64,000 bases of DNA. Origin: Octopus vulgaris (Eukaryota). The stretch is from the NCBI GenBank assembly GCA_951406725.2, contig OX597838.1, positions 7,378,001 to 7,442,000 on the forward strand. Direction: 5' to 3'. The notes below the pieces were generated by a model that saw nothing but the letters and a program-made list of their open reading frames with translations, was not told the DNA's origin and made no database searches. Shown in pieces: positions 3,949 through 55,280 of this stretch. The translations under genes and the position numbers were made by a program. Within the stretch, counting starts at the first letter, position 1. Each line of letters begins with the position of its first letter.

Positions 3949-4236
3949 TGGAGGGGCAATGGCCCAGTGGTGAGGGCAGCGGCCTCGCGGTCGTAGGATC
4001 GCGGTTTCGATTCCCAGACCGGGCGTTGTGAGTGTTTATTAAGCGAAAACACCTAAAAGCTCCACGAGGGCCCGGCAGGCGAGGTGGTCCATGCGGCACT
4101 CTTTCGCCACAACTTTCTCCCACTCCTTCGTCTGTTGGCCTGCTCACTTTGCCAGCGGGATGGCGTCATTCAAAGGGTAAAACAATTGTGACCAGCGATG
4201 TGTAACTACATCTGATGGACTGGTCGGTCACGTGAT
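3949..4236 (+). mobile_element. tRNA-derived SINE, family C, tail type 1
   Basis: A-box-like TGGCCCAGTGG and B-box-like GGTTTCGATTCC in a tRNA-like head. The head and body are shared with the copy at 59140-59476 and the tail with 63390-63508. Confidence 0.85.
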
Positions 4237-4906: not shown

Positions 4907-4963
<57 letters not shown>

Positions 4964-5000
4964 GGATGATAGTGATGGTGGTGGTGGTGGTGGTGGTGGT
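4750..5000. repeat. (TAG)n/(GGT)n trinucleotide tract
   Basis: Directly visible. Confidence 0.9.
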
Positions 5001-5356
5001 CGCAGCGGTGGTAATAGTGGTGCCAGTGCAAAAAAAAATATCCCCCGTCATTGACGGATCGGGGGATTGGGATGTGGACGGTGGGGGGAAAGGGTAGTGC
5101 GATGTGGGTGGTTGGGTGGGGGGTAGCCGTTGTGACGGCCTCGTTGCTCTGAAGCAGAGGTTCTCTGGCGGTGATTTTCATGAAACAGTCAAACAATGTT
5201 TAACTGATGGTGGATAATGATGATGATGATGATGATGATGGCAGATCCCCCGTCCCCCCCACCGCGCTCTAAATCCAACCACACACACACACACACACAC
5301 ATCATTGATGTCCATTTTTAGACTTGGCACTTAGCAGATTAAACAAAACAAACAAT

Positions 5357-5395
<39 letters not shown>

Positions 5396-5599
5396 TATAT
5401 ATATATATATATATGTATAAAGTAGAATCAATAATAAAATTTTAAAACAATTTTACTTTATTTTGTTTTTAAATAAAAAAAAAAAAAAAACACAATACAA
5501 ACAAACCGACATCTTGCTCATCCACATATCCCGCTCCCCCTCCCCGTCACCAACCAACGTCCCGCACAACAATTTGCATTTTAATCATTATCGTTTACA

Positions 5600-5885
5600 C
5601 GATAATGCACTTGTTGTTGTTGTTGTTGCTCTTGTCATTTTGTTGTTCTTGCGTTTGTTATTCGTGATGACCCTGGTGATAATGATGATGATGATCATCA
5701 TGGTAGTAGTGATGATGATGATGATGATGATCATGGGGATGATTACGATGGTGATAATGATGATGATGATGATCATGATGATCATGATGATGAGGCTGAT
5801 GATGATGATGATAGTGGTGGTGGTGGTGGAGGAGGAGAAGGTGAAGGAGGGGGAGACCGAATTGGTGTTAGTGGTGATGATGATA

Positions 5886-5917
<32 letters not shown>

Positions 5918-6027
5918 GAGGAGGAGGAGGATGACGATGATGGTGATGATGATCATGCTTTTTGCTGATGATGTTGTCAATGTTATTTTCTGTGTTCTAT
6001 TGTTCTTTTATTCTTTTCTTTATAGTC

Positions 6028-6062
<35 letters not shown>

Positions 6063-6093
6063 GCCCAGTTCATTTTTGGGTTCAAAATCTCAT

Positions 6094-6124
<31 letters not shown>

Positions 6125-6745
6125 TAAACGTCGAATTTTTCTTTCTCTTCATGTTTTTGTTTATTTTGTTATTTGAATTGTTAAATGGTCATTTTTTCGT
6201 TGTTGTTGTTGTTGTTCTTGTTGATGTTGGTATGTGTTCAATTGTTGTTTGAGGGGGTGGGCCGATGATGGTGGGTGGTGGCGGATAACAATGCCCTTGT
6301 TTTTTTGCTCCAGTCTCTTTCCTTACTCGTATAGGCACTGATTGTGATGATGGTGATGGTGATGGTGATGGTAATGACGTTGTTACTGAAGTAGATAAGG
6401 ACGATAAGGATAATGAAGCTGATGATGATGATGATGATGATGAGGAGGAGGAGGAGGAGGAGAAGGAGGTTGTGGATGATGACCAGTGCCACCATCAACG
6501 ACGACATCATCATCATCATCATCATCATCGTCGTGATCCTCATCATTGCCGTCGTCATCGACCTCATCATCATCATTATTTATCGATCGTCGTCGTCATC
6601 GTCAGGAACACCACCACCAACGCCGTCGCCACTACCACTGTCCACGCCACAACCACCATCATCACCGTTATCGACAACATCATCACCATCACCATTATCA
6701 TCGTCATCATCATTAACATCGTCGTCATCATCATCATCACCATCG

Positions 6746-6812
<67 letters not shown>

Positions 6813-6859
6813 TATCATCATCATCATCGTCATCATCATCATTATCATCATCACCATCG

Positions 6860-6890
<31 letters not shown>

Positions 6891-6907
6891 TATCATCATC
6901 ACCATCG

Positions 6908-6938
<31 letters not shown>

Positions 6939-6985
6939 TATCATCATCACCATCGTCATCATCATCATTATCATCATCACCATCG

Positions 6986-7071
<86 letters not shown>

Positions 7072-7077
7072 AGCATT

Positions 7078-7118
<41 letters not shown>

Positions 7119-8708
7119 ATTCACCCTGAAGAAAATGGCGATAGAGAAGGCGGCGTAATGTTGTTGATGATGTTGTTGATGGTCGGCGGTGTTGACGAAC
7201 ACGTCCTCGATATTTTTGTTTATTTTTTTTTGTTTATTTTTTTGTGGTGATGATGAGGACGATGGTGGAACTCCTGTCATTCGTGATGGTCATCAAGATT
7301 GCGGTAATGGTTGTGAGGGTGGTGCGGCTGGCGATGCTGGCGGTGGTGATGAGGAACGAGTTGGTTTTGACGGTAAGTGAATGAAGAGTGTTGCGTTGAA
7401 GTGAATGAGGAGTGTGGCGGTGGTGCAGGGGATGGTGTTGAAATGGTTTGATGGGGTGGAGTTGGAGCAGATGGTGGTGGTAGTGGTGGTGGTGGTGGTC
7501 GTCGTCGTAGTGGTCATGACAGTCGCGCTGCAGACAGTTATGATGGTCTTCATGAGACTTGTGGTGATGGTGATGGTGTGTGTGTGTTTGTATGTGTGTG
7601 TGTGTGTATGTGTGTGTGTATGTGTGTGTGTGTGTGTATGTGTGTGTTTGTGTGTGTGTGTTGTAACGCCGAGTGATTTGGGTGAAATGGGAAGGTTTGC
7701 GAAGGCAATGGTGGTTTTGGTGAAGGTTAATGACTCAGTCACCTTTGATATGATAAGGAAGAGGAGGGAGAGGAGGTGGGAGAGGAATATGAGGTGGAAG
7801 GAGGAAGGGGAGGAGGGACAGGAGGGACAGGATGCGGAGGAGGAGGAGGAGGAGGAGAGAGACGGTGATGGTAAGTGATAATTGTGGCTTTAATTATGAT
7901 CATCATTATGATCATAATGGTGGTGGTGGTGGTGGTGGTGGCGGAGGTGGTTGTGATGACGGTGGTGATGGTAATGGTGATGATGATGATGGTGAGGATG
8001 ATGATAATCACGATAATGATCCTGATGACATTGAAGATGACGATGATAGTGATGTCGATGGAGCCAATAGTCATAGGCTTGTCACCTCCCGTTCGTTTGA
8101 CCCTTTCATGGGGCGGCACCACGCCTCCAATCATTCTCGTTTGGAACTGAACCCCTCCATCTTCCCCAGTCGTTATTAGGTTCCTCACGACCCTTTTTCA
8201 ACCTGCGTGTCTTTCTTCGTCATTCTTGTAATATCCCTTCGTATAAACTCTCCAAGACATTGGATACATTTTCCTTCTAGCAGCTCCTTCTTCCCCTGCC
8301 GTCTTTTTTCCCCCCACAACGCAGCTTCTCAGTTCCCACGTTTCCAGGGTTTCTGATTCTCTCCCCCTCCCCACAAAACACGTCGTTTCCTGCTTTACAC
8401 TTTCACTCTTTTATTCTTATACATATTTCAGTCATTCAACGGCGACCATGCTGGAGCATTGCTGCTGCTAGTGACGATGCTGATAATGATGACGACGTTG
8501 ATGATGATAATGATATTGATGGTGGTCGTGGTCATGGTGATGACGGTATTGATTGTGGAGGTAGCGGTGGTGATGACGATGATGAGCGTCGCCATGGCGA
8601 TGGTGGTGCTGGTGGTCGTCGTCCTGATGGTGATGATGATGATGATGGTGCTGCTGATGATGATTATGATGACGCTAGTAATGGTGATAAGGATGCAGTT
8701 GAAGATGT

Positions 8709-8845: not shown

Positions 8846-9246
8846 GTTGGCGATGATGATTATGAATGCAGAGAATTGTTTGCTGGTGTTCTTTCTTATT
8901 CCGTTTTTGCCCAAAATGAATTAATACAAAAATGTCTGTCCGAACTGTCACTGATGGGCCAACATAACACATTCCATTAAGTAAATGGGTCTCCTCCTCC
9001 CCCACCACTCCACAGCAGCCATCATCGCCCTTCTCCACAAAACATCCTCAAATAAATAACAGTTGCAAGAGGTGAGAGGAGGAGGGAACAGCAACAGTAG
9101 ATTTCATACTTGTGTGTGTCTGTGTGTGTGTGTATATATAAGTGTGTGTGTGCGTGTGTGTGTATATGTACGTATGTATGTATGTATGTATGTATGTATG
9201 TATGTATGTCTGTCTGATGAATGTATGTATATAACTAGCTAGCTAG

Positions 9247-9282
9247 CTAGATAGATAGATAGATAGATAGACAGATATATAC

Positions 9283-9329
<47 letters not shown>

Positions 9330-9405
9330 TATAGATAGATAGATAGATAGATATATAGATAGATAGATGGGTAGATAGATAGATAGATAGATATATAGAT
9401 AGATA
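9247..9405 (+). repeat. (GATA)n microsatellite abutting the 3' end of the LINE
   Basis: Directly visible; ends at ...agatagata|actttcttttattagcc. Confidence 0.95.
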
Positions 9406-9721
9406 ACTTTCTTTTATTAGCCACACAGGGCTGAATACAGAGGGGACAAATACAAATGCAGAGCTTTTCTTTTCGAGGTTGGAAAAAAAAAAAAAAAAAA
9501 AAAAAAAAATGTAAGATTGCGATCAAAAGGGATCGAGAGGAGGAAAAAAAAGGAAAAAAAAGAAAATCGTGTATCACAGAAATAATGGTGTAAACATTGA
9601 TATAACAAGATTGGGTTCATCCGTGGGAAGAAAAGCCTACAGAAAAGACCACGGGAACCCCAGTCAGGGAGGAAATAAACACATGAGGTCAAAAATGCTC
9701 TCTTTCTTTCTTTTTTACGAT

Positions 9722-12700
9722 CTACAGGATCATGCTCAAAATGGTTTCGTTACTAGCACGCACCATCTTTGCAACATTCACCCATCTTTTTTTGAATCTT
9801 TCGCGAGACAAAACTTCCCTCTCCATTCTCACCTTCCTTTTCAAGTGGTACTTGAAAAAGTTGATGAGCGATTGGCCAGAGAGGTAAGTGTTTGTCTCTA
9901 ATCCTTTCGCTCGAGTCCACCACACACATTCTTTCACCATGGCCACCAGTACGATGAAAACTGCCTTGCCTTCCCGGTTGAGGGAAGGGGGCGGAGCAAT
10001 TCTCACGATAGACTCGGCCGATAGGCGGATTCGTCCCACACGTGACAGCAGCCGTTCGGCATAAGCCCACAGGTCGGAAATGGTTGGACATTGCACGAGT
10101 GCGTGCAGAACGGTTTCGTCGCTCTGACCGCATCTCGGGCAAGTCGGTCCAGTGTGTCTGGAACCGTGTCTGTAGAGCTTATCCCGAACAGGTAATGCTT
10201 CTCGATAGCACTGCCAGGCCAGGGATCTTTGATGATTGTTCATAGGTCCCGGCCCGAAAGTTGTCCTGAACAGGCGGGTCAGGTGTTCCTCGTCGACGCC
10301 CAGACTCTGCCCGAGTTCGTCGTCGCACCTCCCCTCCACTAATCCTCTATAGAATGCCTTTGTTGTGATGGAGTCGCACAAGTTCGATCCCGGACGGCAG
10401 AGTTGCTTGAGAGCAACGCGACACTCGCGGTGCCATTCGCCTAGCCTCGGTCTCTGCTTGATCCATGACTGTAGTTCGTCCAAGGAGACGAGCTGCGGGA
10501 AAGCGCGCCGCACAAAAGGCGACCACCCCTGTTCACCGTTGTCTATGAAGCGCCGGAGATGTCGCAGTCTCAGCGCATGTCTGCGCATCATCAACCACGG
10601 CAGGCCCAGCCCTCCATTTAGCGGGTGTTGGCAGCAAATGGATCGCCTAACCATCGGAACGTTTCCCTTCCACAAGAAGCGGAAGAGTATGCGTTCCAGT
10701 TTGGTGATGGTAGGGTCGGGACAAGGCACGACGGTCAGACGATACTCGATGACGGATGCGATGTACGCGTTCGCCACCTCCGCCCGACCTTTTAGGGATA
10801 GCTTTCTCTCAGTCCATTTCTGGGTGAGAGTAGCCACCCTAGTCGTTATCTCGCCCCAGTTCTTCTCCATTTGGAGGTCCGGACCGAACCAGACCCCGAG
10901 CAATTTAACCGGTCCGTCCGTCCAGCGTCCCACGATGGAGACGCTGTTGGACGGCATGGGCTTGCTTCTCCAGGTGCCGAGCCGCAAGCCCACTGACTTT
11001 TCCCGGTTAATTTTTGCTCCCGTTACCGCTTCGTATTCTTTCAGTGTCTCGCCGACCAGCTCGATGTGCTCGTAGCTCGACACTATGACGGTGACGTCAT
11101 CCGCGTATGCAGATACGCTCCTCCCGCATCCCAGCTCTCGTGGGATGCCCCTCAGCGTCGCCAGTTTCCGCAGTAGTGGCTCAAGAGTCAGTACATACAG
11201 CAGCGATGAGAGGGGGCATCCCTGACGAACCGAACGCATGATGTTAAAAGGTCTGGATAGATGACCATTTACGCGAACTACTGAGCGGATGCCGCTGTAT
11301 AAGGCAGCGATCCAACCGCGGAAAACTGGACCGAAACCAGCCGCTTTGAGGACAGCCTCCAAGTAGTGATGGTCTACCCTATCGAAGGCTTTTGATTGAT
11401 CCAAATTGATCAGCGCCCCACCCATGCCAGGATTTTTAACTACCCTGTCTATGATGTAGCGCATCAGATGGAGGTTGTCATGAATACTTCTACCCGGCAC
11501 GGCGCATGTTTGCGCCTTGTCGATTAGTTTCTTGATGACAAGCGCCAACCTCTCGGCTAACACCTTGGCCAAAATTTTCAAATCTGCGTTGAGCAGAGTG
11601 ATGGGCCTGAAATTATCTATGACGTCCCCCTTGTTTGGGTCTTTCTTGATCAGTGCCACTGCTCCTCGCTTTACAAAAGCAGGAATACTCCCGTTCTGCT
11701 GCCAGTTGCAGTAGACAGCTGCCAAGACGCCTCCAAACAAGTCTGGCATATGAAAATAAAATTCGTAGGGCAGACCATCCAAGCCTGGTGACTTATCTCT
11801 CGCGCAGCCTACCATCGCATCCTGTACATCCGCAGCTGTGATAGGCTTTTCACAAGACTCCACCTCCCTTGCTGAGAGTCGTGGCAAGGCATGCAGGTAG
11901 GCACTAAAGTCCACTCTGCTTTCTGACTCACCACTTGTCCCAAACAGTTGGGTGAAGTGTTGTTGAAAAACCCCACACATCCTTTTAGGCTCGAGCAATT
12001 CGCGCCCCTGTTCATCTATAAGAGACTTGATGGTGGATCTGTTGCCTCGTTGCGTCTCCACCACTCGGGCCTCTTGGGCGGCTCCAACTCCTTCGTTCCT
12101 CAGAGCACGCATCTTAGCTCTGACAACGCATCCCTCGTGTTTGGCGTTGAGGTGTTGGTCGAGGGCCAATCTCGCCGCCAGTACGTTGGACGCGATGCCA
12201 GTTCTAAGTGCCTCTTCTAAAACCTTAACTAATTCTCCCTCTATTCTATTTCGGTCTAATGCTAGGGCTCTACTGTATCTGACTGATTCTGCTTTAATCG
12301 CTTTTTTTAGGGCATACCACCATCTGTTGTTGATGATGGTACCCGTCAAAGCTCTCTTAACTAATGTGCTGATCCGGTCCCTGTAAACCTGTCGTGCTGT
12401 AAAAGACGCGTTCAGTTTCCAGTAACCAGGACCCTGCCTATGTGTCTTATCTAAGTCAAGTGTACAAGTCACAAACTTGTGATCTGTGTAACTGACTATA
12501 TGAAATTGTGGACAACCTACACTATTTTTATCTATTGTCCTACAGAATACTCTATCTAAGTATGATCTGGACGACCCGATGCGGTTACTCCATGTCCACA
12601 TTGGCACATTCGGGTGGTCCAGTCGGTACCTGTCAGACAGTTGGAAACGTCTGAGCAGGTCTTTGAGGCATTTGCATCCCCTTCTATTGCTATCTCTGCC

Positions 12701-13159
12701 CACGTAGTCTAGATGCGTGTCCAGGGTGGCATTCCAATCCCCCACTAAAAGTAAAGGACGAGACGTTCCCATGAAAGACTCTAGACGTCGAAAGAAATCT
12801 GGTCGGCCTGTTAAGGACGGAGCATAAACTGCTATCAGTCGAAAAGCACACTCATTGCTGCCATCGACATCCAAAACGACCAGCCTACCCTCCGGGTCTA
12901 GGAAATTTGCTCTTACTTTGAGATCCAGACTCTTCCGGATAAGCACCGCGGTGCCACCTCCGCCCATTCTCGGTAGACACGGAGAAAAATAAATGTTGAA
13001 ATGTGTACCGAAAATGTGCTGGAGTGCCCGCAAGCTGTGGAGTCTGGTCTCACTGATGGCTATGATATTTAGATTTAGTGACTTGATGTCATTTAACAGG
13101 TAGCCTTGTTTCCAAGGCGACCCCAAGCCACGTACATTTATACTACCTATTCTGAGCAT
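9722..13159 (-). CDS. LINE ORF2 polyprotein: APE endonuclease, reverse transcriptase and C-terminal zinc finger (1145 aa from first ATG)
   Basis: APE motifs SINVRGL, ISETR, GDWN, YLDRVF and TDH; RT motifs KSPGLDGLP, NFRPITLLN, LDQSKAFDRVDH, VRQGCPLS, AYADD and LLGVWF; then GGLGLP and the zinc finger CPRCGQSDETVLHALVQC. No internal stops. The ORF track opens at a TTG (13177); the first ATG is at 13159. Confidence 0.95.
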   Translation of the reverse strand: MLRIGSINVRGLGSPWKQGYLLNDIKSLNLNIIAISETRLHSLRALQHIFGTHFNIYFSPCLPRMGGGGTAVLIRKSLDLKVRANFLDPEGRLVVLDVDGSNECAFRLIAVYAPSLTGRPDFFRRLESFMGTSRPLLLVGDWNATLDTHLDYVGRDSNRRGCKCLKDLLRRFQLSDRYRLDHPNVPMWTWSNRIGSSRSYLDRVFCRTIDKNSVGCPQFHIVSYTDHKFVTCTLDLDKTHRQGPGYWKLNASFTARQVYRDRISTLVKRALTGTIINNRWWYALKKAIKAESVRYSRALALDRNRIEGELVKVLEEALRTGIASNVLAARLALDQHLNAKHEGCVVRAKMRALRNEGVGAAQEARVVETQRGNRSTIKSLIDEQGRELLEPKRMCGVFQQHFTQLFGTSGESESRVDFSAYLHALPRLSAREVESCEKPITAADVQDAMVGCARDKSPGLDGLPYEFYFHMPDLFGGVLAAVYCNWQQNGSIPAFVKRGAVALIKKDPNKGDVIDNFRPITLLNADLKILAKVLAERLALVIKKLIDKAQTCAVPGRSIHDNLHLMRYIIDRVVKNPGMGGALINLDQSKAFDRVDHHYLEAVLKAAGFGPVFRGWIAALYSGIRSVVRVNGHLSRPFNIMRSVRQGCPLSSLLYVLTLEPLLRKLATLRGIPRELGCGRSVSAYADDVTVIVSSYEHIELVGETLKEYEAVTGAKINREKSVGLRLGTWRSKPMPSNSVSIVGRWTDGPVKLLGVWFGPDLQMEKNWGEITTRVATLTQKWTERKLSLKGRAEVANAYIASVIEYRLTVVPCPDPTITKLERILFRFLWKGNVPMVRRSICCQHPLNGGLGLPWLMMRRHALRLRHLRRFIDNGEQGWSPFVRRAFPQLVSLDELQSWIKQRPRLGEWHRECRVALKQLCRPGSNLCDSITTKAFYRGLVEGRCDDELGQSLGVDEEHLTRLFRTTFGPGPMNNHQRSLAWQCYREALPVRDKLYRHGSRHTGPTCPRCGQSDETVLHALVQCPTISDLWAYAERLLSRVGRIRLSAESIVRIAPPPSLNREGKAVFIVLVAMVKECVWWTRAKGLETNTYLSGQSLINFFKYHLKRKVRMEREVLSRERFKKRWVNVAKMVRASNETILSMIL

Positions 13160-13201
13160 GTTCCGATAAAAGTGCAAAAAAGGAAAAGGAGAGAGAAAAG
13201 G

Positions 13202-13604
13202 TTACTTGTTTTCCGAAAGTTCTTTGTCTTTCACCTCACGGTCTTCTTCTATGAGGCTTTTATACAGTTTTTTCGATGAGTACTTTTGAAATCTCCCTAC
13301 TGCATCAGGGTAAAGAGATTTCAGGGTGCTGTATGTGTTCTGTGTCACATGTATTATTTTAATGTGTTGTGGTGGTGTTGTGTGTGGGTGGTTACTTGTT
13401 TTTATGTCGTTTTCAGTAATGTTAGTGTTTGACCTAATGTGTTCCATTAGGTCGTGGTTGTTTGTGTTTATGGCTGTCAACATTTTTGGGGGGTTTGATG
13501 ATGGTGTGTTTGTGTTGATGTGTGTGTTTTCTGTGGATGTTTTTGTTTCGGGAGTGGTGTATCTTCCCGCTTTGTTTGTTATTTTTTCTTTTCTTTTTTT
13601 CCCC
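13202..13604 (-). CDS. Probable C-terminal continuation of ORF1 in the -1 frame (alternatively a small third ORF)
   Basis: The open frame overlaps the ORF1 stop across a GGGGAAAAAAAG run and has the same T/N/K-rich composition as ORF1. It ends 42 nt before the ORF2 ATG. Confidence 0.6.
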
Positions 13605-15366
13605 TTTTTCTTCTCCCCCCTGTGGCTATTTGCCAATCTTCCGTGTCTTCTTCGTCTAATGACAGATCAGACGAATCGGAGTCTGGAAGAGGGAAAGTAT
13701 TGGGGTCTATTGTCGACTGTGTTGGTTTTGTTGTTGGTGTTGGTTGGTGAGCGTTTGGTTGTGGTGTATGCGGTTTTGGATGTGGGGTTTGGGTATTTTG
13801 TGTTTGAGTGATTGTGGGTATTGTTGTGTTGTTTAGGGTCTCAATTTTGTGGGGATTTGGAGTTGTAATTGTTTCTTCATTTTTGCTGGGTGTCTTTTTG
13901 GCAGATGTCCTTGGTTTGGGAGTTGGTATATTCTTGGTTGTTGTTGTTGGTGATGCTGCTTCTGTTCTTGGTGCTGCAGTTGGTGTGGTTGTTTGTTTGG
14001 TGAGGTTTGTTCCTGCAAAAAGTGGTGTGGGTAGTAAACCTTGTTTATTTGTTTTTGTTTCCGGCTGCTGTTGTTGTTGCTGTTGTTTTCTTGCGGCAGA
14101 TTTGCAGTCTTTTTTGAGGTGTTGCTCACTGCCGCATATGTAGCAACGTGGTCTTCTGCCATCGACGACCACATATAACTTGTGGTCGTCTGATACACAT
14201 ATCTGGGTGGGTATTTTTTTTATATCTTCATGATGTATATGTAGAAGAAATTCTATTTTTCTTCCCACCCAGTTTTTATGCTCTGTGACTGTGGTTTCCA
14301 AAATAGTATAATTCGCCATATTTACGCATAAGGCCTTTACAAGCCATAGACTATTGTCTATTTTGGGGACATTGTTTAGAGTGATCTTAGTCACTTTCTG
14401 TCCCCGATAGCTTGGTGTAAGTTGGAGTTCATCTGAGTGAAGAGTTAGCGTTGAGAAATGTCTAGCTAACTCTTCGGTGTAGAAAACGACTTGTATGTGG
14501 GCAAATTTGTTCCACCAGGTTACATATTCTTTATGATCCCAGATGGGTTTCAAGCACTTCTCTATTTTGCTTGTGTTGGCCTTCTCTGGGATTTTTGTTT
14601 TTTTGTTAACTATTTTATAAATGATTGTTCGTCTTTTTTCATTTTCCAAAATATCTTCTGGTATGTTTATTTTTACTATACCTTCTGATTCTGTTATTTT
14701 GATGTTCGTGTCCTGTATTTGTTGAGCCGTAAAGTATATTGTTGTTTTTTTTTCTTTAATCGCCTCAGCGAAATTTGTTGTTGTTTTGTTATTGTTGTTG
14801 CTTGTGGTGATGTTGTTGTTGGCCGCAGTTTGTAAAATTGGTGTGTTTGGTTCGATCGTGCAAGTAGGAAGGGGTGGAAAATTGCCTGCGTACTTTAGTC
14901 CTGCACTAGGGCAAAATTCGACATTTCGTTTGCTTGTCGTCGTTATTTTTTCACTTGTTGGTGATGGAGTGAGCAGTGGTTGAAGGGAATTGTTGTTGTC
15001 GTCGTTGTTGTTGTTGTTGTTGTTGTTATTGTCGTTCTTGGTGACGGCGGTGGTGTTGGTAGTATTAGTAGCATTGACGGCACGGCCTTTGGTGGCGGTG
15101 ATGGTGATGTTGGTGTTGTTATTGGTGGCGATATCTTTAGTAGGGATAGCAGTTTCAGTAGCAGATTCTGCCATGGTGTTGGTGGTGGTGGTGGTGGACT
15201 CACTGATGGTGTTGACGGTGCTTGGCCTTGCGACCTTTGTTTTGTATTTGTTGCTGTTGGTGGTGGTGGAGTTGTCAGGTTCGGCGTATGCTAACAGAGC
15301 ATGCTGTTTTTCTGTTTCTGCGTCACGCTTCACTTGCAAACCAGCCTCGTGGTGGCCAGTGGCCAT
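13579..15366 (-). CDS. LINE ORF1 gag-like nucleic-acid-binding protein with CCHC zinc knuckle (595 aa from ATG)
   Basis: ATG at 15366 in good context (AAAATGG). CYICGSEQHLKKDC (C-X2-C-X4-H-X4-C) lies at 14104-14145, with Thr/Asn/Gln-rich low-complexity flanks and an acidic-then-basic end. Confidence 0.88.
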   Translation of the reverse strand: MATGHHEAGLQVKRDAETEKQHALLAYAEPDNSTTTNSNKYKTKVARPSTVNTISESTTTTTNTMAESATETAIPTKDIATNNNTNITITATKGRAVNATNTTNTTAVTKNDNNNNNNNNNDDNNNSLQPLLTPSPTSEKITTTSKRNVEFCPSAGLKYAGNFPPLPTCTIEPNTPILQTAANNNITTSNNNNKTTTNFAEAIKEKKTTIYFTAQQIQDTNIKITESEGIVKINIPEDILENEKRRTIIYKIVNKKTKIPEKANTSKIEKCLKPIWDHKEYVTWWNKFAHIQVVFYTEELARHFSTLTLHSDELQLTPSYRGQKVTKITLNNVPKIDNSLWLVKALCVNMANYTILETTVTEHKNWVGRKIEFLLHIHHEDIKKIPTQICVSDDHKLYVVVDGRRPRCYICGSEQHLKKDCKSAARKQQQQQQQPETKTNKQGLLPTPLFAGTNLTKQTTTPTAAPRTEAASPTTTTKNIPTPKPRTSAKKTPSKNEETITTPNPHKIETLNNTTIPTITQTQNTQTPHPKPHTPQPNAHQPTPTTKPTQSTIDPNTFPLPDSDSSDLSLDEEDTEDWQIATGGRRKRGKKEKKK

Positions 15367-15592
15367 TTTGGAAATAAAATGGCTAAATGAAACCACGAAG
15401 GCTATGAGAATTTTTTCTTTAAAATTTTGCCCACAAGGGGCAAAATTTTGTGTCGATATTTATCAAAGGTTTACAGTGGATGTTGTTGCACAACATTTAA
15501 GCACAAAATGTTTGTCAATATACACTTTTAAATAGTCAAAATAAATGATTACCTTCGGAGCTGAAACGACATCACATCCGTCAATAGAGAAT

Positions 15593-15605
15593 GATAGATA
15601 GATAA

Positions 15606-15653
<48 letters not shown>

Positions 15654-15665
15654 ATAGGTAGATAG
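15593..15665 (+). repeat. (GATA)n microsatellite abutting the 5' end of the LINE
   Basis: Directly visible; same strand orientation as the tract at 9247-9405. Confidence 0.95.
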
Positions 15666-15835
15666 TATGTATATAGGTAGATATAGATATAGCTATATAT
15701 GCACACCAAAACATACACATGCTGATTAATAAAATATAATTTATTTCTTACATGTGTGTGAGTGTAGAGGCATATAATCGTTTTCTCTATATCTATCTCA
15801 CATTCCACAAACACAAATACGTATATGCATGCATA

Positions 15836-23619: not shown

Positions 23620-24545
23620 CTTGGACCGCTACTGTTTCTTGTGGTTCTCTCAGATATGCCCTCTGTCGTACAGTCAGCCATTCTCACCAGCTATACCGAC
23701 AGTACAAAATTATCTCCGGTGGTAAATGACCCTTATGACATAGTAAACTGCATGCAATATATAAAATGGTCCTTGACAATAACACGTAGTACAATGCTGA
23801 TAAGATTCAAGCAAACTGTTATTGTCCCACGGACAGCCCTCAGTCGGAATACATAGGACCAGGGGCAGTGCAATTCCAGAGTTAGAATCGAAGCGTGATC
23901 TGGGGATCCACATGAGTAGTGATGCAACATTCCACCTGAGGCAACCTAGCGCCACTACACAAAGAAGATGGATTGGGTGAAACAGATGAACTACTAAGAG
24001 AGGTTACAAGATCTGAAGCGCTACTCCCTGGAGGTAATGAGTCACAGCTTATAAAGTGATACACATATAGAAGCTCCTGGAACCTCTAGCTCCCAACTGG
24101 GCAAATAGAAGCTCTACCAACCACCAAAATGAACGGCACTGTATAATACTAAAGATACTGACTTCTGCATCAAAGATAACGACCCAGTATTCTTTTCTAC
24201 TCTAAGAAAAGGCCTGAAATTTTGGGGGAGGAGGCCTGTCGATTATATCAACCTCACTACTCAACTGGTACTAAATTTATCGACCACGAAAGGATAAAAG
24301 TCAACCTCGGCGGAATACGAACTCAGAACACAAAGACAGACGAAATACCGCTAAGATTTTCTGCCAGCTCGTCGCCTTCGTAAGGTCCCAGTGTTGAAAT
24401 AGCTTGCGTTTCAGGGGACCACAACTGTTTAACAACAGGCCAAGGACTCTAAGAGATTTTGCAAGGTGTAAATGTGGTAGTGTTAAAAAAGCACTTAGAC
24501 AAATTTCTGTCTGAAATGCAATATGTGTCCACATCACGGCAGGAG
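23620..24545 (+). pseudogene. Decayed CR1-like LINE RT / 3' portion, interrupted by a SINE
   Basis: Remnants GPLLFLVVLSDMP...SYTDSTKL (degenerate YADDTK), KRDLGIHMSSD, ERLQDLKRYSLE, NSLRFRGPQLFN and LKKHLDKFLS. Confidence 0.75.
24190..24377 (-). mobile_element. SINE family A, tail type 1, inserted in the CR1-like remnant
   Basis: Head ggcgacgagctggcagaa, body ttcgtattccgccgaggttgacttt and tail cccaaaatttcaggccttt. An imperfect flanking direct repeat reads taacgacccagtatt / taaggtcccagtgtt. Confidence 0.8.
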
Positions 24546-24760
24546 ACCCAGCCTCTAGCTGAAACCCAGCGGGTTGTAGAGGAATATAAGAATATCTATA
24601 TGTATATACATATATCTATGTATGTCTATCTATCTATGTAAGTATATCCATCTCTATGTATCTATCTATCAATCTATCTCTGTCTATGTCTATCTATCTG
24701 TCTATCTATTTATCTATTTATTCATGTATATGTATATATCTATCTATGTCAATCTATCTA

Positions 24761-24836
<76 letters not shown>

Positions 24837-30121: not shown

Positions 30122-30174
30122 CTATTATCTATCTATCTATCTCTCTCTCTCTATATATATATATAATATACATA

Positions 30175-31596: not shown

Positions 31597-31674
31597 AGTA
31601 ATTTATCGACCCCAAAAGGATGAAAGGCAAAGTCGACCTCGGCAGAATTTGAACGTAACGACAGACGAAATACC
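31597..31674 (-). mobile_element. Partial SINE family A body directly downstream of the full copy
   Basis: The minus strand ggtatttcgtctgtcgttacgttcaaattctgccgaggtcgactttgcctttcatcc repeats the body of the adjacent copy. Confidence 0.8.
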
Positions 31675-31905
31675 TATTTCTGTACTACCCACAAGGGGCT
31701 ACACACACACGGGACAAACAAGGACAGATAAACGGATTAATTCGATTATATCGACCCCAGTGTGTAACTGGTACTTAGTTAATCGACCCCGAAAGGATGA
31801 AAGGCAAAGTCGACCTCGGCGGAATTTGAACTCAAAACGTAAAGATAGACGAAATATTGCTAAGCATTTCGCCCGGCGTGCTAACGTTTCTGCCAATTCG
31901 CAGCC
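31675..31905 (-). mobile_element. SINE family A, tail type 2 (LINE-like tail)
   Basis: tRNA-like head, B-box-like GAGTTCAAATTCC, body gtcgactttgcctttcatcctttcggggtcga and tail tctgtccttgtttgtccc...tagccccttgtgggtagtacagaaata. Confidence 0.88.
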
Positions 31906-32672
31906 TTACCGAAGGACCTATTCCAGCACAGGTCTGGTAGTATAATTTTCATCCCAGAATGTATAAAATGCAAAGTTGATGATGTCAGAATATGAACACT
32001 CAGTAACAGAAAGATACACAATTTACCGCATTACTATTTATAGGACACTTTAACGAATCTTTAAGAGGGTTCCCAAATATTTGTGTGTGTGTGTGTTTTA
32101 ATGTGTTCCGTTTTAGTAAATTCAGTTTATGTCTTATTCTTATAACATTGGCATAATTGACATTCTCCCACCCTCGAAATTACTGGCCCACTACCAAAAA
32201 TTCCAAACCATTATTATATCATAGCCGTTAAATTGAATTATTCTTCTCCATTCTGGCACATTTGCGAATGTTTGAGCGAATAAATATTTCCAATAAATTT
32301 ATGAAATATATTTCTAATTTCTATCAGAGAGTCCTTTTCTAAATTTTTTTTTATATTTAATATGAATTTCCACATTTTGAGCATTTACAAATGTAATTAT
32401 TTACACTTAGCAAATATTGAAATTTTTTGAATGACGCTTCCGTATCGCGACTTAGATTTTCGTTCCAATACAAGAGCATTTTGGAAATTCAAGTGCATTT
32501 AAAAAACGCAACACACTTTTGAACACTTCTTCCTCTTTCTTACTCTTCATCTCTCTCTCGTCATATATCTATATTATCTACCTATCAATCTAACTACGTT
32601 TTCGATGCAATTAGGTGTACAGGTAAATTATCTACAAACCGATGCTATAGACATGTACTGGTAAACATTTTA

Positions 32673-33320: not shown

Positions 33321-33548
33321 GGCGGCGAACTGGCAGAATCCTTAACACGCACGACAAGTTCGGCCCCTTTTTTTCCAGCTCTTTGTGTTCTAAGTTCAAA
33401 ATCTGCCGAGATCAACTTTGCTTTCCATCAATGTAGGGTTTCGATGACATTAAATACCAGTCAAGTACCCGGGTTAAATTAATCGACTTATCCCACCCAC
33501 GCCCGCAAAAAATTGCTGGCCTTGTGTCAAAATATAAAACCAATATTT
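33321..33548 (+). mobile_element. SINE family A, tail type 1
   Basis: ggcggcgaactggcagaatc...aagttcaaaatctgccgagatcaactttgctttccatc...aaaattgctggccttgtg. Confidence 0.75.
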
Positions 33549-36122: not shown

Positions 36123-36339
36123 GGTGATGAGCTGACAGTATCGTTAGTACGCCGGGCGAAATGCTAAGCCTTATTTCGTCTGTCTTTATGTTCTGAGTTG
36201 AAATTCCGCAGTAGTTGACTTTGCCTTTCATCCTTCCGGGAAAGCGAAATTAAGTACCAGTTGCGTACTGCTGTCGATCAAATCGAGTGTTTCCATCCCA
36301 CCAAAATTCCGGGCCTTGTGCCTAGAGTAGAAAATAATA
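36123..36339 (+). mobile_element. SINE family A, tail type 1, with target-site duplication
   Basis: Family A head and body with tail ccaaaattccgggccttgtgcctagagtagaaaa. Flanking direct repeat TCAC(C/T)TTGAAGG at 36108-36119 and 36340-36351. Confidence 0.85.
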
Positions 36340-53930: not shown

Positions 53931-54573
53931 TTCTCTTATTTGTTTCACTCATTTGGCTACGGCTATGCTGGAGCACCGCCTTTAGTCGAACAAATCCACC
54001 CAAGGACATATTCTTTGTAAGCCTAGTTCTTATTCTATCGGTATCTTTTGCCGAAAGGCTAAGTTACTGGTATATAAACACAAAAAGGCGGCGAGCTGGC
54101 AGAACCGTTAGCACGCTGGGTGAAATGCTTAGCGGTATTTCGTCTGCCGTTACGTTCTGAGTTCAAATTCCGCCGAGGTCGACTTTGCCTTTCATCCTTT
54201 CGGGGTCGATAAATTAAGTACCAGTTACGCACTGGGGTCGATGTAATTGACTTAATACCTATGTCTGTCCTTGTTTGTCCCCTCTATGTTTAGCCCCTTG
54301 TGGGTAGTAAAGAAATAGGTATATAAACACACAAACATCGGTTGTGAAGCGACGGTGGAGAGGACAACCGCACACAGAGAAACACATGCACACATGTATA
54401 TACATATATACGACGGGCTTCTGTCAGTTTCCGTTTACCAAAACTATACACAAGGCTTTGGTCAGCTTTGGCGATAGTAGAAGACACTTGTCCAAGGTGC
54501 CAGGCTGTGGGACTGAACCCGGAACCATGTGACTGTGAAACAAGCTTCTTCCCCACGGCCACGCCCTCGCCTG
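53931..54573 (-). mobile_element. SINE family B, interrupted by a nested family A SINE
   Basis: The family B sequence resumes after the insert (...aaacac|acaaacatcggttgt); its head lies at ~54500-54573. Confidence 0.88.
54087..54317 (+). mobile_element. Young SINE family A, tail type 2 (LINE-like tail), with 14-bp target-site duplication
   Basis: Clean head ggcggcgagctggcagaaccgttagcac and B-box-like GAGTTCAAATTCC. TSD GGTATATAAACACA at 54069-54082 and 54318-54331. Confidence 0.92.

Positions 54574-55219: not shown

Positions 55220-55280
<61 letters not shown>

Follow-up and report, generated by a model that had tools for sequence, protein, structure and literature searches.

A probably young Tx1-type LINE inside a (GATA)n microsatellite of Octopus vulgaris, and a possible role of its RNA tail in target choice

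We analysed a 64,000-nucleotide stretch of Octopus vulgaris DNA (contig OX597838.1), hereafter the window, and focused on a Tx1-type long interspersed nuclear element (LINE) that lies inside a (GATA)n microsatellite and may belong to a family that prefers such repeats. The full-length element covers 6,187 bp on the reverse strand (9406..15592). Using Tandem Repeats Finder (TRF), AGAT-class arrays of the same orientation were detected on both sides, at 9236-9405 (42.5 units) and 15593-15683 (23 units). Read in the sense of the element, the 5' junction is (TATC)n followed by ATTCTCTATTG and the 3' junction is AATAAAAGAAAGT followed by (TATC)n, the boundary between LINE and repeat being uncertain by about 1 nt. 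That is, both ends pass directly into (GATA)n, as the first-pass annotation of this DNA had stated; a target-site duplication is not resolvable within the surrounding repeat. The 5' untranslated region (UTR; 15367..15592, reverse strand, 226 nt) begins immediately after the repeat, and the T-rich 3' UTR (9406..9721, reverse strand, 316 nt) contains a T27 run at 9483-9509. The element has no poly(A) tail, likewise as reported: 7 nt separate its AATAAA signal (9413..9418, reverse strand) from the 3' junction, and the signal is not followed by an A tract.

ORF2 (9722..13159, reverse strand, read from 13159 to 9722) is an open reading frame (ORF) of 1,145 amino acids (aa) with an APE endonuclease domain (aa 6-222), a reverse transcriptase (RT) domain (aa 508-756) and a zf-RVT domain (aa 978-1031). 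Pfam returned Exo_endo_phos (PF03372), RVT_1 (PF00078) and zf-RVT (PF13966), and the expected APE, RT and CCHC motif patterns were all found. The best PDB match is L1 ORF2p, and an Argonauta hians protein is 65% identical. The uninterrupted ORF2 with APE, RT and zinc finger described in the first pass is borne out by Pfam and motifs.

A separate ORF1, homologous to ORF1 of relatives, lies upstream of ORF2 in the layout typical of Tx1 elements, here frameshifted. Its N-terminal part (13579..15366, reverse strand) comprises 595 codons between a start at 15366 and a stop at 13579, with a weak zinc knuckle below the Pfam cut-off (E 0.0022); named relatives come from Octopus bimaculoides, O. sinensis, O. 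vulgaris and Argonauta. The C-terminal part (13202..13610, reverse strand) lies in another frame, a 154-aa frame ending at 13202. This frame matches the C-terminus of one single-frame ORF1 relative at 43% over 80 aa (E 5e-17) and of a second at 55% over 93 aa (E 3e-26); P0335, a single-frame relative, matches the N-terminal part too. Since the frame ending at 13202 thus matches C-termini of single-frame relatives, ORF1 as assembled is, judged from these alignments, split by a frameshift in purine runs near 13580-13610. A third relative matched the downstream frame weakly (E 1e-4) and a fourth did not match it, a hidden Markov model of ORF1 C-termini from the metagenome-assembled genome (MAG) introduced below did not place it above shuffles, and a word-based ORF1 search gave no matches. 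The frameshift may be a mutation or a sequencing error; an X20 contig spanning the site contains 13 gapped letters, all but one placed elsewhere (12), which may reflect, though they do not prove, a private 1-nt indel. Of the full-length, intact copy described initially, the open ORF2 therefore stands, and the break in ORF1 near 13580-13610 had been overlooked. Three ORF1 relatives (P0329, P0331 and P0345) are annotated as Octopus host genes, one of them as 'EPM2A-interacting 1-like', and are likely transposon ORFs within gene sets.

For clade placement, 131 RT segments were analysed with FastTree (three short loci dropped) and a subset of 51 sequences (369 columns) with IQ-TREE, rooted on three unlabelled distant loci. 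The LINE groups with Argonauta and unnamed relatives of 71-81% identity (ultrafast bootstrap, UFBoot, 94); cuttlefish proteins and the MAG arrays form the sister of this group (UFBoot 100). All of these join three unlabelled long-branch loci (100), then a U2-flanked (91) and then a 5S-flanked group (92). The flanking genes had been identified with Rfam, applied to 20 loci: U2 at the 3' ends of L007, L013 and L015, and 5S at L016 and L021. With these U2- and 5S-flanked loci as proxy, in a tree that holds no named Tx1, Kibi or Koshi references, the LINE likely belongs to a cephalopod Tx1-type lineage, in support of its first assignment to Tx1. The 64,000-base window gave 0 Rfam matches, so the LINE does not lie in a U2 small nuclear RNA (snRNA) or 5S rRNA insertion site. 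Among the other loci, U1 snRNA genes stand on both sides (L121, 3036-3199 and 9961-10137) of a Tx1-type ORF2 (4939-8391), which may represent a U1-associated family. Weak U2-like matches upstream of ORF2 (L001 701-817, L004 554-716, L007 782-896), in elements related to the U2-flanked ones, may be U2-derived 5' heads.

Most ORF2 words occur in 20 sequencing runs from 9 studies. The LINE matched 1,064 X1 contigs (301 at at least 99%, 281 at 95-99% and 482 at 90-95%) and 151 X20 contigs. The eight longest X1 pieces among the matches listed (8 of 1,064) differ from it at 10 of 3,190 nt (0.31%), which corresponds to about 0.9 million years at the rate quoted in PMC13282606. The copy is thus likely young, and the recent activity proposed earlier is supported. 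Contig depth, which gives no copy number, drops from the 3' part of ORF2 toward the 5' end, as would be expected of a multi-copy, 5'-truncating family with sister families. In this read and contig mapping, junction repeats were left out (9382-9568 at the 3' end and three other stretches). One X1 contig (depth 10.2) has 29 unmatched letters beyond 15583, which, if colinear, would reach 20 nt beyond the 5' end, an indirect hint. In two raw-read runs (X23 and X24), whose species label matches that of the runs with ORF2 words, only 9 and 23 of 12,895,792 reads each matched and none did so over most of ORF2, so the family is absent from these runs. Within the 5' UTR (15534-15573), five X24 reads with 2 different starts show a backward jump of 40 nt.

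Close copies with visible flanks were not recovered elsewhere. There was no second LINE copy in the window, none of the best 80 of 529 loci from a metagenome scan with an alignment of distant relatives as query was close, GTDB scans returned only the MAG arrays and distant loci and no close copy with flanks, and viral scans gave no close copy; JGI proteins at 77-81% identity exist. A 16-nt 3'-end pattern with 93 and 6 loci was discarded as chance matches, none of which extended beyond 21-27 nt. Four 12-mers of the 3' UTR were absent from the octopus microsatellite papers searched.

We then compared the flanks with the element they enclose. The 3'-side (GATA)n array (9246..9405) has 9 mismatches in 160 nt against perfect TATC and is part of a compound microsatellite continuing into (TAGC)n and (CATA)n; the 5'-side array (15593..15665), in the same orientation, has 3 mismatches in 72 nt. 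Because the flanks are degenerate (4-6%, versus about 0.3% between the LINE and its closest contigs) and the 3' side is compound, the (GATA)n array likely predates the insertion. A 3' array made as a tail at insertion was rejected, the array being degenerate and compound and the repeat standing on the 5' side too. This degenerate, probably pre-existing array on both sides supports the earlier argument that a repeat tail alone is inadequate and that the 5' flank matters. The in-phase joining of the two arrays was given little weight, as roughly one join in four is expected to be in phase anyway.

How often would an insertion land in such a place by chance? A 20-nt AGAT-class repeat lies on both sides of 212 of the 57,813 host positions (0.37%), or of 38 (0.07%) if the LINE's own array is left out, whereas any 1-4-nt microsatellite does so at 4,088 (7.1%). 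The 7% is the fair null, since any microsatellite would have been flagged. Of the host bases in the window, 24.6% are microsatellite and 1.0% belong to the AGAT class; the other GATA-class arrays in the window (24625-24829, 30126-30141 and 55223-55278) have no LINE tail beside them. With about a quarter of the host bases in microsatellites, a weakly specific Tx1 element with a short motif, for example G as the first junction base or TAT within the junction, could have landed once in GATA without any family preference. Since 421 insertions are recorded for the 13 recently active L1-Tx1 families of O. vulgaris (PMC13282606, Table 1), there were many chances for a single such landing, and we regard this explanation as quite possible. 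However, the 0.37% of positions with AGAT on both sides speaks against it, as do the target reuse visible in the lineage (see below) and, indirectly, the one collapsed X1 contig that seems to run past the 5' end.

Another possibility is that mis-assembly, segmental duplication or a recombination event between GATA arrays joined the two arrays secondarily, in which case the flanks would not represent one insertion site. Both joins lie within low-complexity repeat, in the runs mapped (junction repeats left out) no read or contig crosses either junction into unique DNA, and the ORF1 frameshift in homopolymer runs makes sequencing error possible. However, even with a join within one of the flanks, both LINE ends, the 5' end included, would directly adjoin GATA, and the LINE interior is about 99.7% identical to independent contigs; we consider such an origin highly improbable.

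Further evidence comes from short interspersed nuclear elements (SINEs) that carry the LINE tail. The 3'-terminal 38 nt of the LINE (9408..9445, reverse strand) include a 4-bp hairpin at 9419-9432, ahead of AATAAA; folding of the 3'-terminal region was not above shuffles (z 0.22), and both LINE ends folded no better than shuffled sequence. These 38 nt are common to two SINE-like copies in the window. The first (54087..54317, forward strand) has the tail at 82% over 38 nt and sits inside another SINE, bounded by a duplication of 14 bp (54069-54082 and 54318-54331) starting with GGTAT. The second (31670..31907, reverse strand), 88.7% identical to the first, has it at 75% over 36 nt and continues into a GGTAT segment from the interior of its own SINE family. 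The shared tail had a local score of 24, whereas none of 100 shuffled tails scored above 15; SINE and LINE thus have their 3'-terminal sequence in common, as partners do. Related SINE heads at 36129-36286, 24238-24368 and 33321-33490 carry another tail. Both same-tail copies join at GGTAT, which is also host-target sequence (n=2), and neither lies in GATA, a result that fits the chance landing described above. As the two copies are only 88.7% alike, their mobilisation may go back to an older sister LINE. With n=2, these sites fit short-homology priming and weigh against a GATA endonuclease throughout the lineage.

The nearest relatives with DNA context came from GTDB. Among the 47 GTDB loci, 41 fall on 16 contigs (586 kb, 86 matches) of a single MAG labelled bacterial, G001 (contigs C3-C15 and C17-C19; loci L081-L119, L124, L127 and L129-L148), where LINEs are arranged head to tail. 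Judged from their microsatellites and tree position, these contigs are likely animal and probably cephalopod DNA; the arrays thus concern both contamination of a bacterial MAG and a possible self-targeting LINE system. Most units are intact LINEs of 6.4-6.8 kb with about 41% ORF2 identity to the window LINE. None of their 47 distinct 3' ends has an A-run after AATAAA. Instead, AATAAA is followed by a short family-specific spacer, which we grouped by eye into nine classes; the first non-A base is G in 41 of the 47 junctions, with nothing else obvious in common, as a weakly specific element landing by chance might leave. The 9-mer TTCTCTATT at the 5' start of the window LINE (15584-15592) also stands at the 5' start of one MAG family (L143, near 6004) and may be chance or a conserved initiator.

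Among 15 of the 16 contig representatives the endonucleases are 90-100% identical, yet eight spacer classes occur; those of different classes are 90-96% alike, and 100% identity always coincides with the same class. The endonuclease hairpin loop is identical in 13 of the 15 representatives, covering seven spacer classes. The spacer was found at all four array 3' ends examined (17/18, 16/17, 13/17 and 24/29), and at L113 a 5'-truncated unit directly follows the spacer, a pattern that suggests serial retrotransposition. The arrays may instead have arisen by template jumping or unequal crossing-over.

These relatives bear on the GATA-specific endonuclease implied by the first-pass annotation, that is, an enzyme that, as in Kibi and Koshi, itself recognises and nicks (GATA)n while the RNA tail is secondary. 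Tx1 families occur on (TC)n, (TTC)n, (TTCC)n and (TTTC)n, with target choice credited mainly to the endonuclease in the excerpts of PMC4494074. In addition, TATCT starts the 3' flank here, follows G in both U2-flanked junctions printed far enough (L007 and L015, 2/2) and follows AATAAA in L081, a recurrence that hints at an inherited cleavage preference. However, eight spacer classes coexist with endonucleases 90-96% alike, TATCT starts only one of the nine classes, and the same-tail SINE uses GGTAT. The hairpin loop of the window endonuclease aligns without gaps to human L1, and the Tx1L graft in 2v0r has two residues more. Specificity is affected by loop length, and an L1-length loop sits better with a weakly specific enzyme than with a GATA-specific one, although this is not decisive. 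The implied endonuclease is weakened by this reuse of unrelated short targets and by the two SINE copies, and we consider it unlikely.

We tentatively prefer a reading in which a young LINE of a cephalopod Tx1-type lineage inserted into an older (GATA)n array and its family favours GATA through a read-through RNA tail combined with a loose endonuclease. RNA is cleaved 10-30 nt downstream of AAUAAA. LINE RNA cut just past this signal, inside the flanking repeat, would end in a few UAUC units; the loose endonuclease would nick GATA strands, and the (UAUC)n end could pair with a nicked strand and prime copying there. Each copy in GATA would then pass the same target on to its daughters. The proposed family preference would arise because transcripts that continue into one GATA repeat could pair with another. 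There is precedent for single steps: according to excerpts of PMC6530143 and PMC3649969, read-through pairing increased R2Ol insertion, and primer-template pairing controls L1 priming. In favour of the RNA tail we counted the divergence of the flanks relative to that of the LINE, together with the rarity of GATA on both sides (0.37%; any microsatellite 7.1%); the relatives without poly(A), with one spacer per family and near-identical endonucleases; the spacer at 4/4 array 3' ends together with the truncated unit at L113; GGTAT at both same-tail SINE joins (n=2); and, as indirect evidence, the X1 contig with 29 extra letters past 15583.

Several observations weigh against the RNA-tail reading. 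Only one copy has visible flanks, and the relatives with arrays are only about 41% identical in ORF2. GATA occurs at none of their 47 distinct 3' ends (0/47) and beside neither same-tail SINE copy (0/2). The spacer lies upstream at only two of the six array 5' ends examined (C17, 0 of 500 in the null; C6, by eye); three others were not above the null (103, 182 and 191 of 500), and the sixth begins with a truncated unit. Pairing to a spacer-like target therefore does not hold generally. Template jumping and unequal crossing-over offer other possible origins for the arrays. Starting from a guessed prior of 15-20% for a Tx1 family to target a microsatellite, one such copy raised our estimate to about 70%, which was lowered to about 60% because of the same-tail SINE result; GATA targeting at the level of the family, with one copy as basis, is therefore rather probable in our judgement.

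A broader version of the RNA-tail reading is that cephalopod Tx1 LINEs are RNA-programmed: the 12-29 flank bases captured past AAUAAA would set the next site, so that private arrays grew on unrelated sequences with nearly the same endonuclease, GATA was colonised genome-wide in the octopod family and the partner SINE moved to GGTAT. We regard this as doubtful. A target switch would then need one off-target landing only, and an RNA tail that picks the site would explain why Tx1 elements switch targets frequently. Octopus GATA marker loci could be disrupted by the LINE, and a candidate driver for an octopod SINE would be at hand. By itself, the locus adds one motif (GATA) and one host group to the known microsatellite-targeting Tx1 LINEs, and an intact L1-Tx1 in octopus is expected; it is the mechanism that raises its value. 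Because their endonucleases are nearly identical while the targets they reuse differ, the relatives offer a natural test set, and the arrays are the stronger lead.

Among known systems, Kibi in (TC)n, Koshi in (TTC)n and crocodilian Tx1 elements in (TTCC)n and (TTTC)n (excerpts of PMC4494074 and PMC3812793) are likewise APE-type Tx1-clade LINEs inside microsatellites, and tetranucleotide targets are thus already known. Their listed units are T/C-rich like TATC, assuming that they are written for the sense strand of the element. Unlike these, the window LINE is flanked by (TATC)n, off the list of (TC)n, (TTC)n, (TTCC)n and (TTTC)n; TATC/GATA is not among the targets in the papers searched, the host is an octopod and one copy is at hand. 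Families count as targeting if more than 20% of their copies are flanked by the target (excerpts of PMC4494074); here, one copy was seen. In 2013, excerpts of PMC3812793 called microsatellite targeting by APE-type LINEs poorly understood, credited the endonuclease and did not include GATA among the listed targets. PMC13282606, in parts 1-2 of 3 and in a search of its supplement, reports the 13 recently active L1-Tx1 families of O. vulgaris with no mention of targets. A GATA-targeting Tx1, cephalopod Tx1 arrays or a Tx1 partner of an octopus SINE did not appear in the literature searched, a weak negative since subscription papers and Repbase Reports were mostly outside it.

The SINE copies resemble the SINEU/Tx1-Mar pairs (excerpts of PMC4494074), in which a SINE and a Tx1-type LINE also have a terminal segment in common; unlike there, the two SINE copies of the window do not have the flank of the LINE copy. 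Octopus tRNA-derived SINEs are known as OR1 and OR2 (as cited in excerpts of PMC4758252 and PMC4824008), and the window SINE was matched to no named family. With elements of the Keno and Mutsu types, the Tx1 elements of U2 snRNA and 5S rRNA, respectively, the LINE has in common that its clade groups with U2- and then 5S-flanked loci and that TATCT occurs in U2-flanked 3' junctions too. Unlike it, those loci have A-rich tails and only about 28-30% ORF2 identity, and the window is without an Rfam match.

The closest mechanistic parallels are read-through pairing in R2Ol and R1Bm and the snap-velcro model of L1 (excerpts of PMC6530143 and PMC3649969; R1Bm as a cited title only), where, as proposed here, the 3' end of the RNA pairs with the nicked target and primes reverse transcription. 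In R2Ol and L1, however, pairing refines a site that the endonuclease has chosen, whereas here the captured flank itself is proposed as the main chooser.

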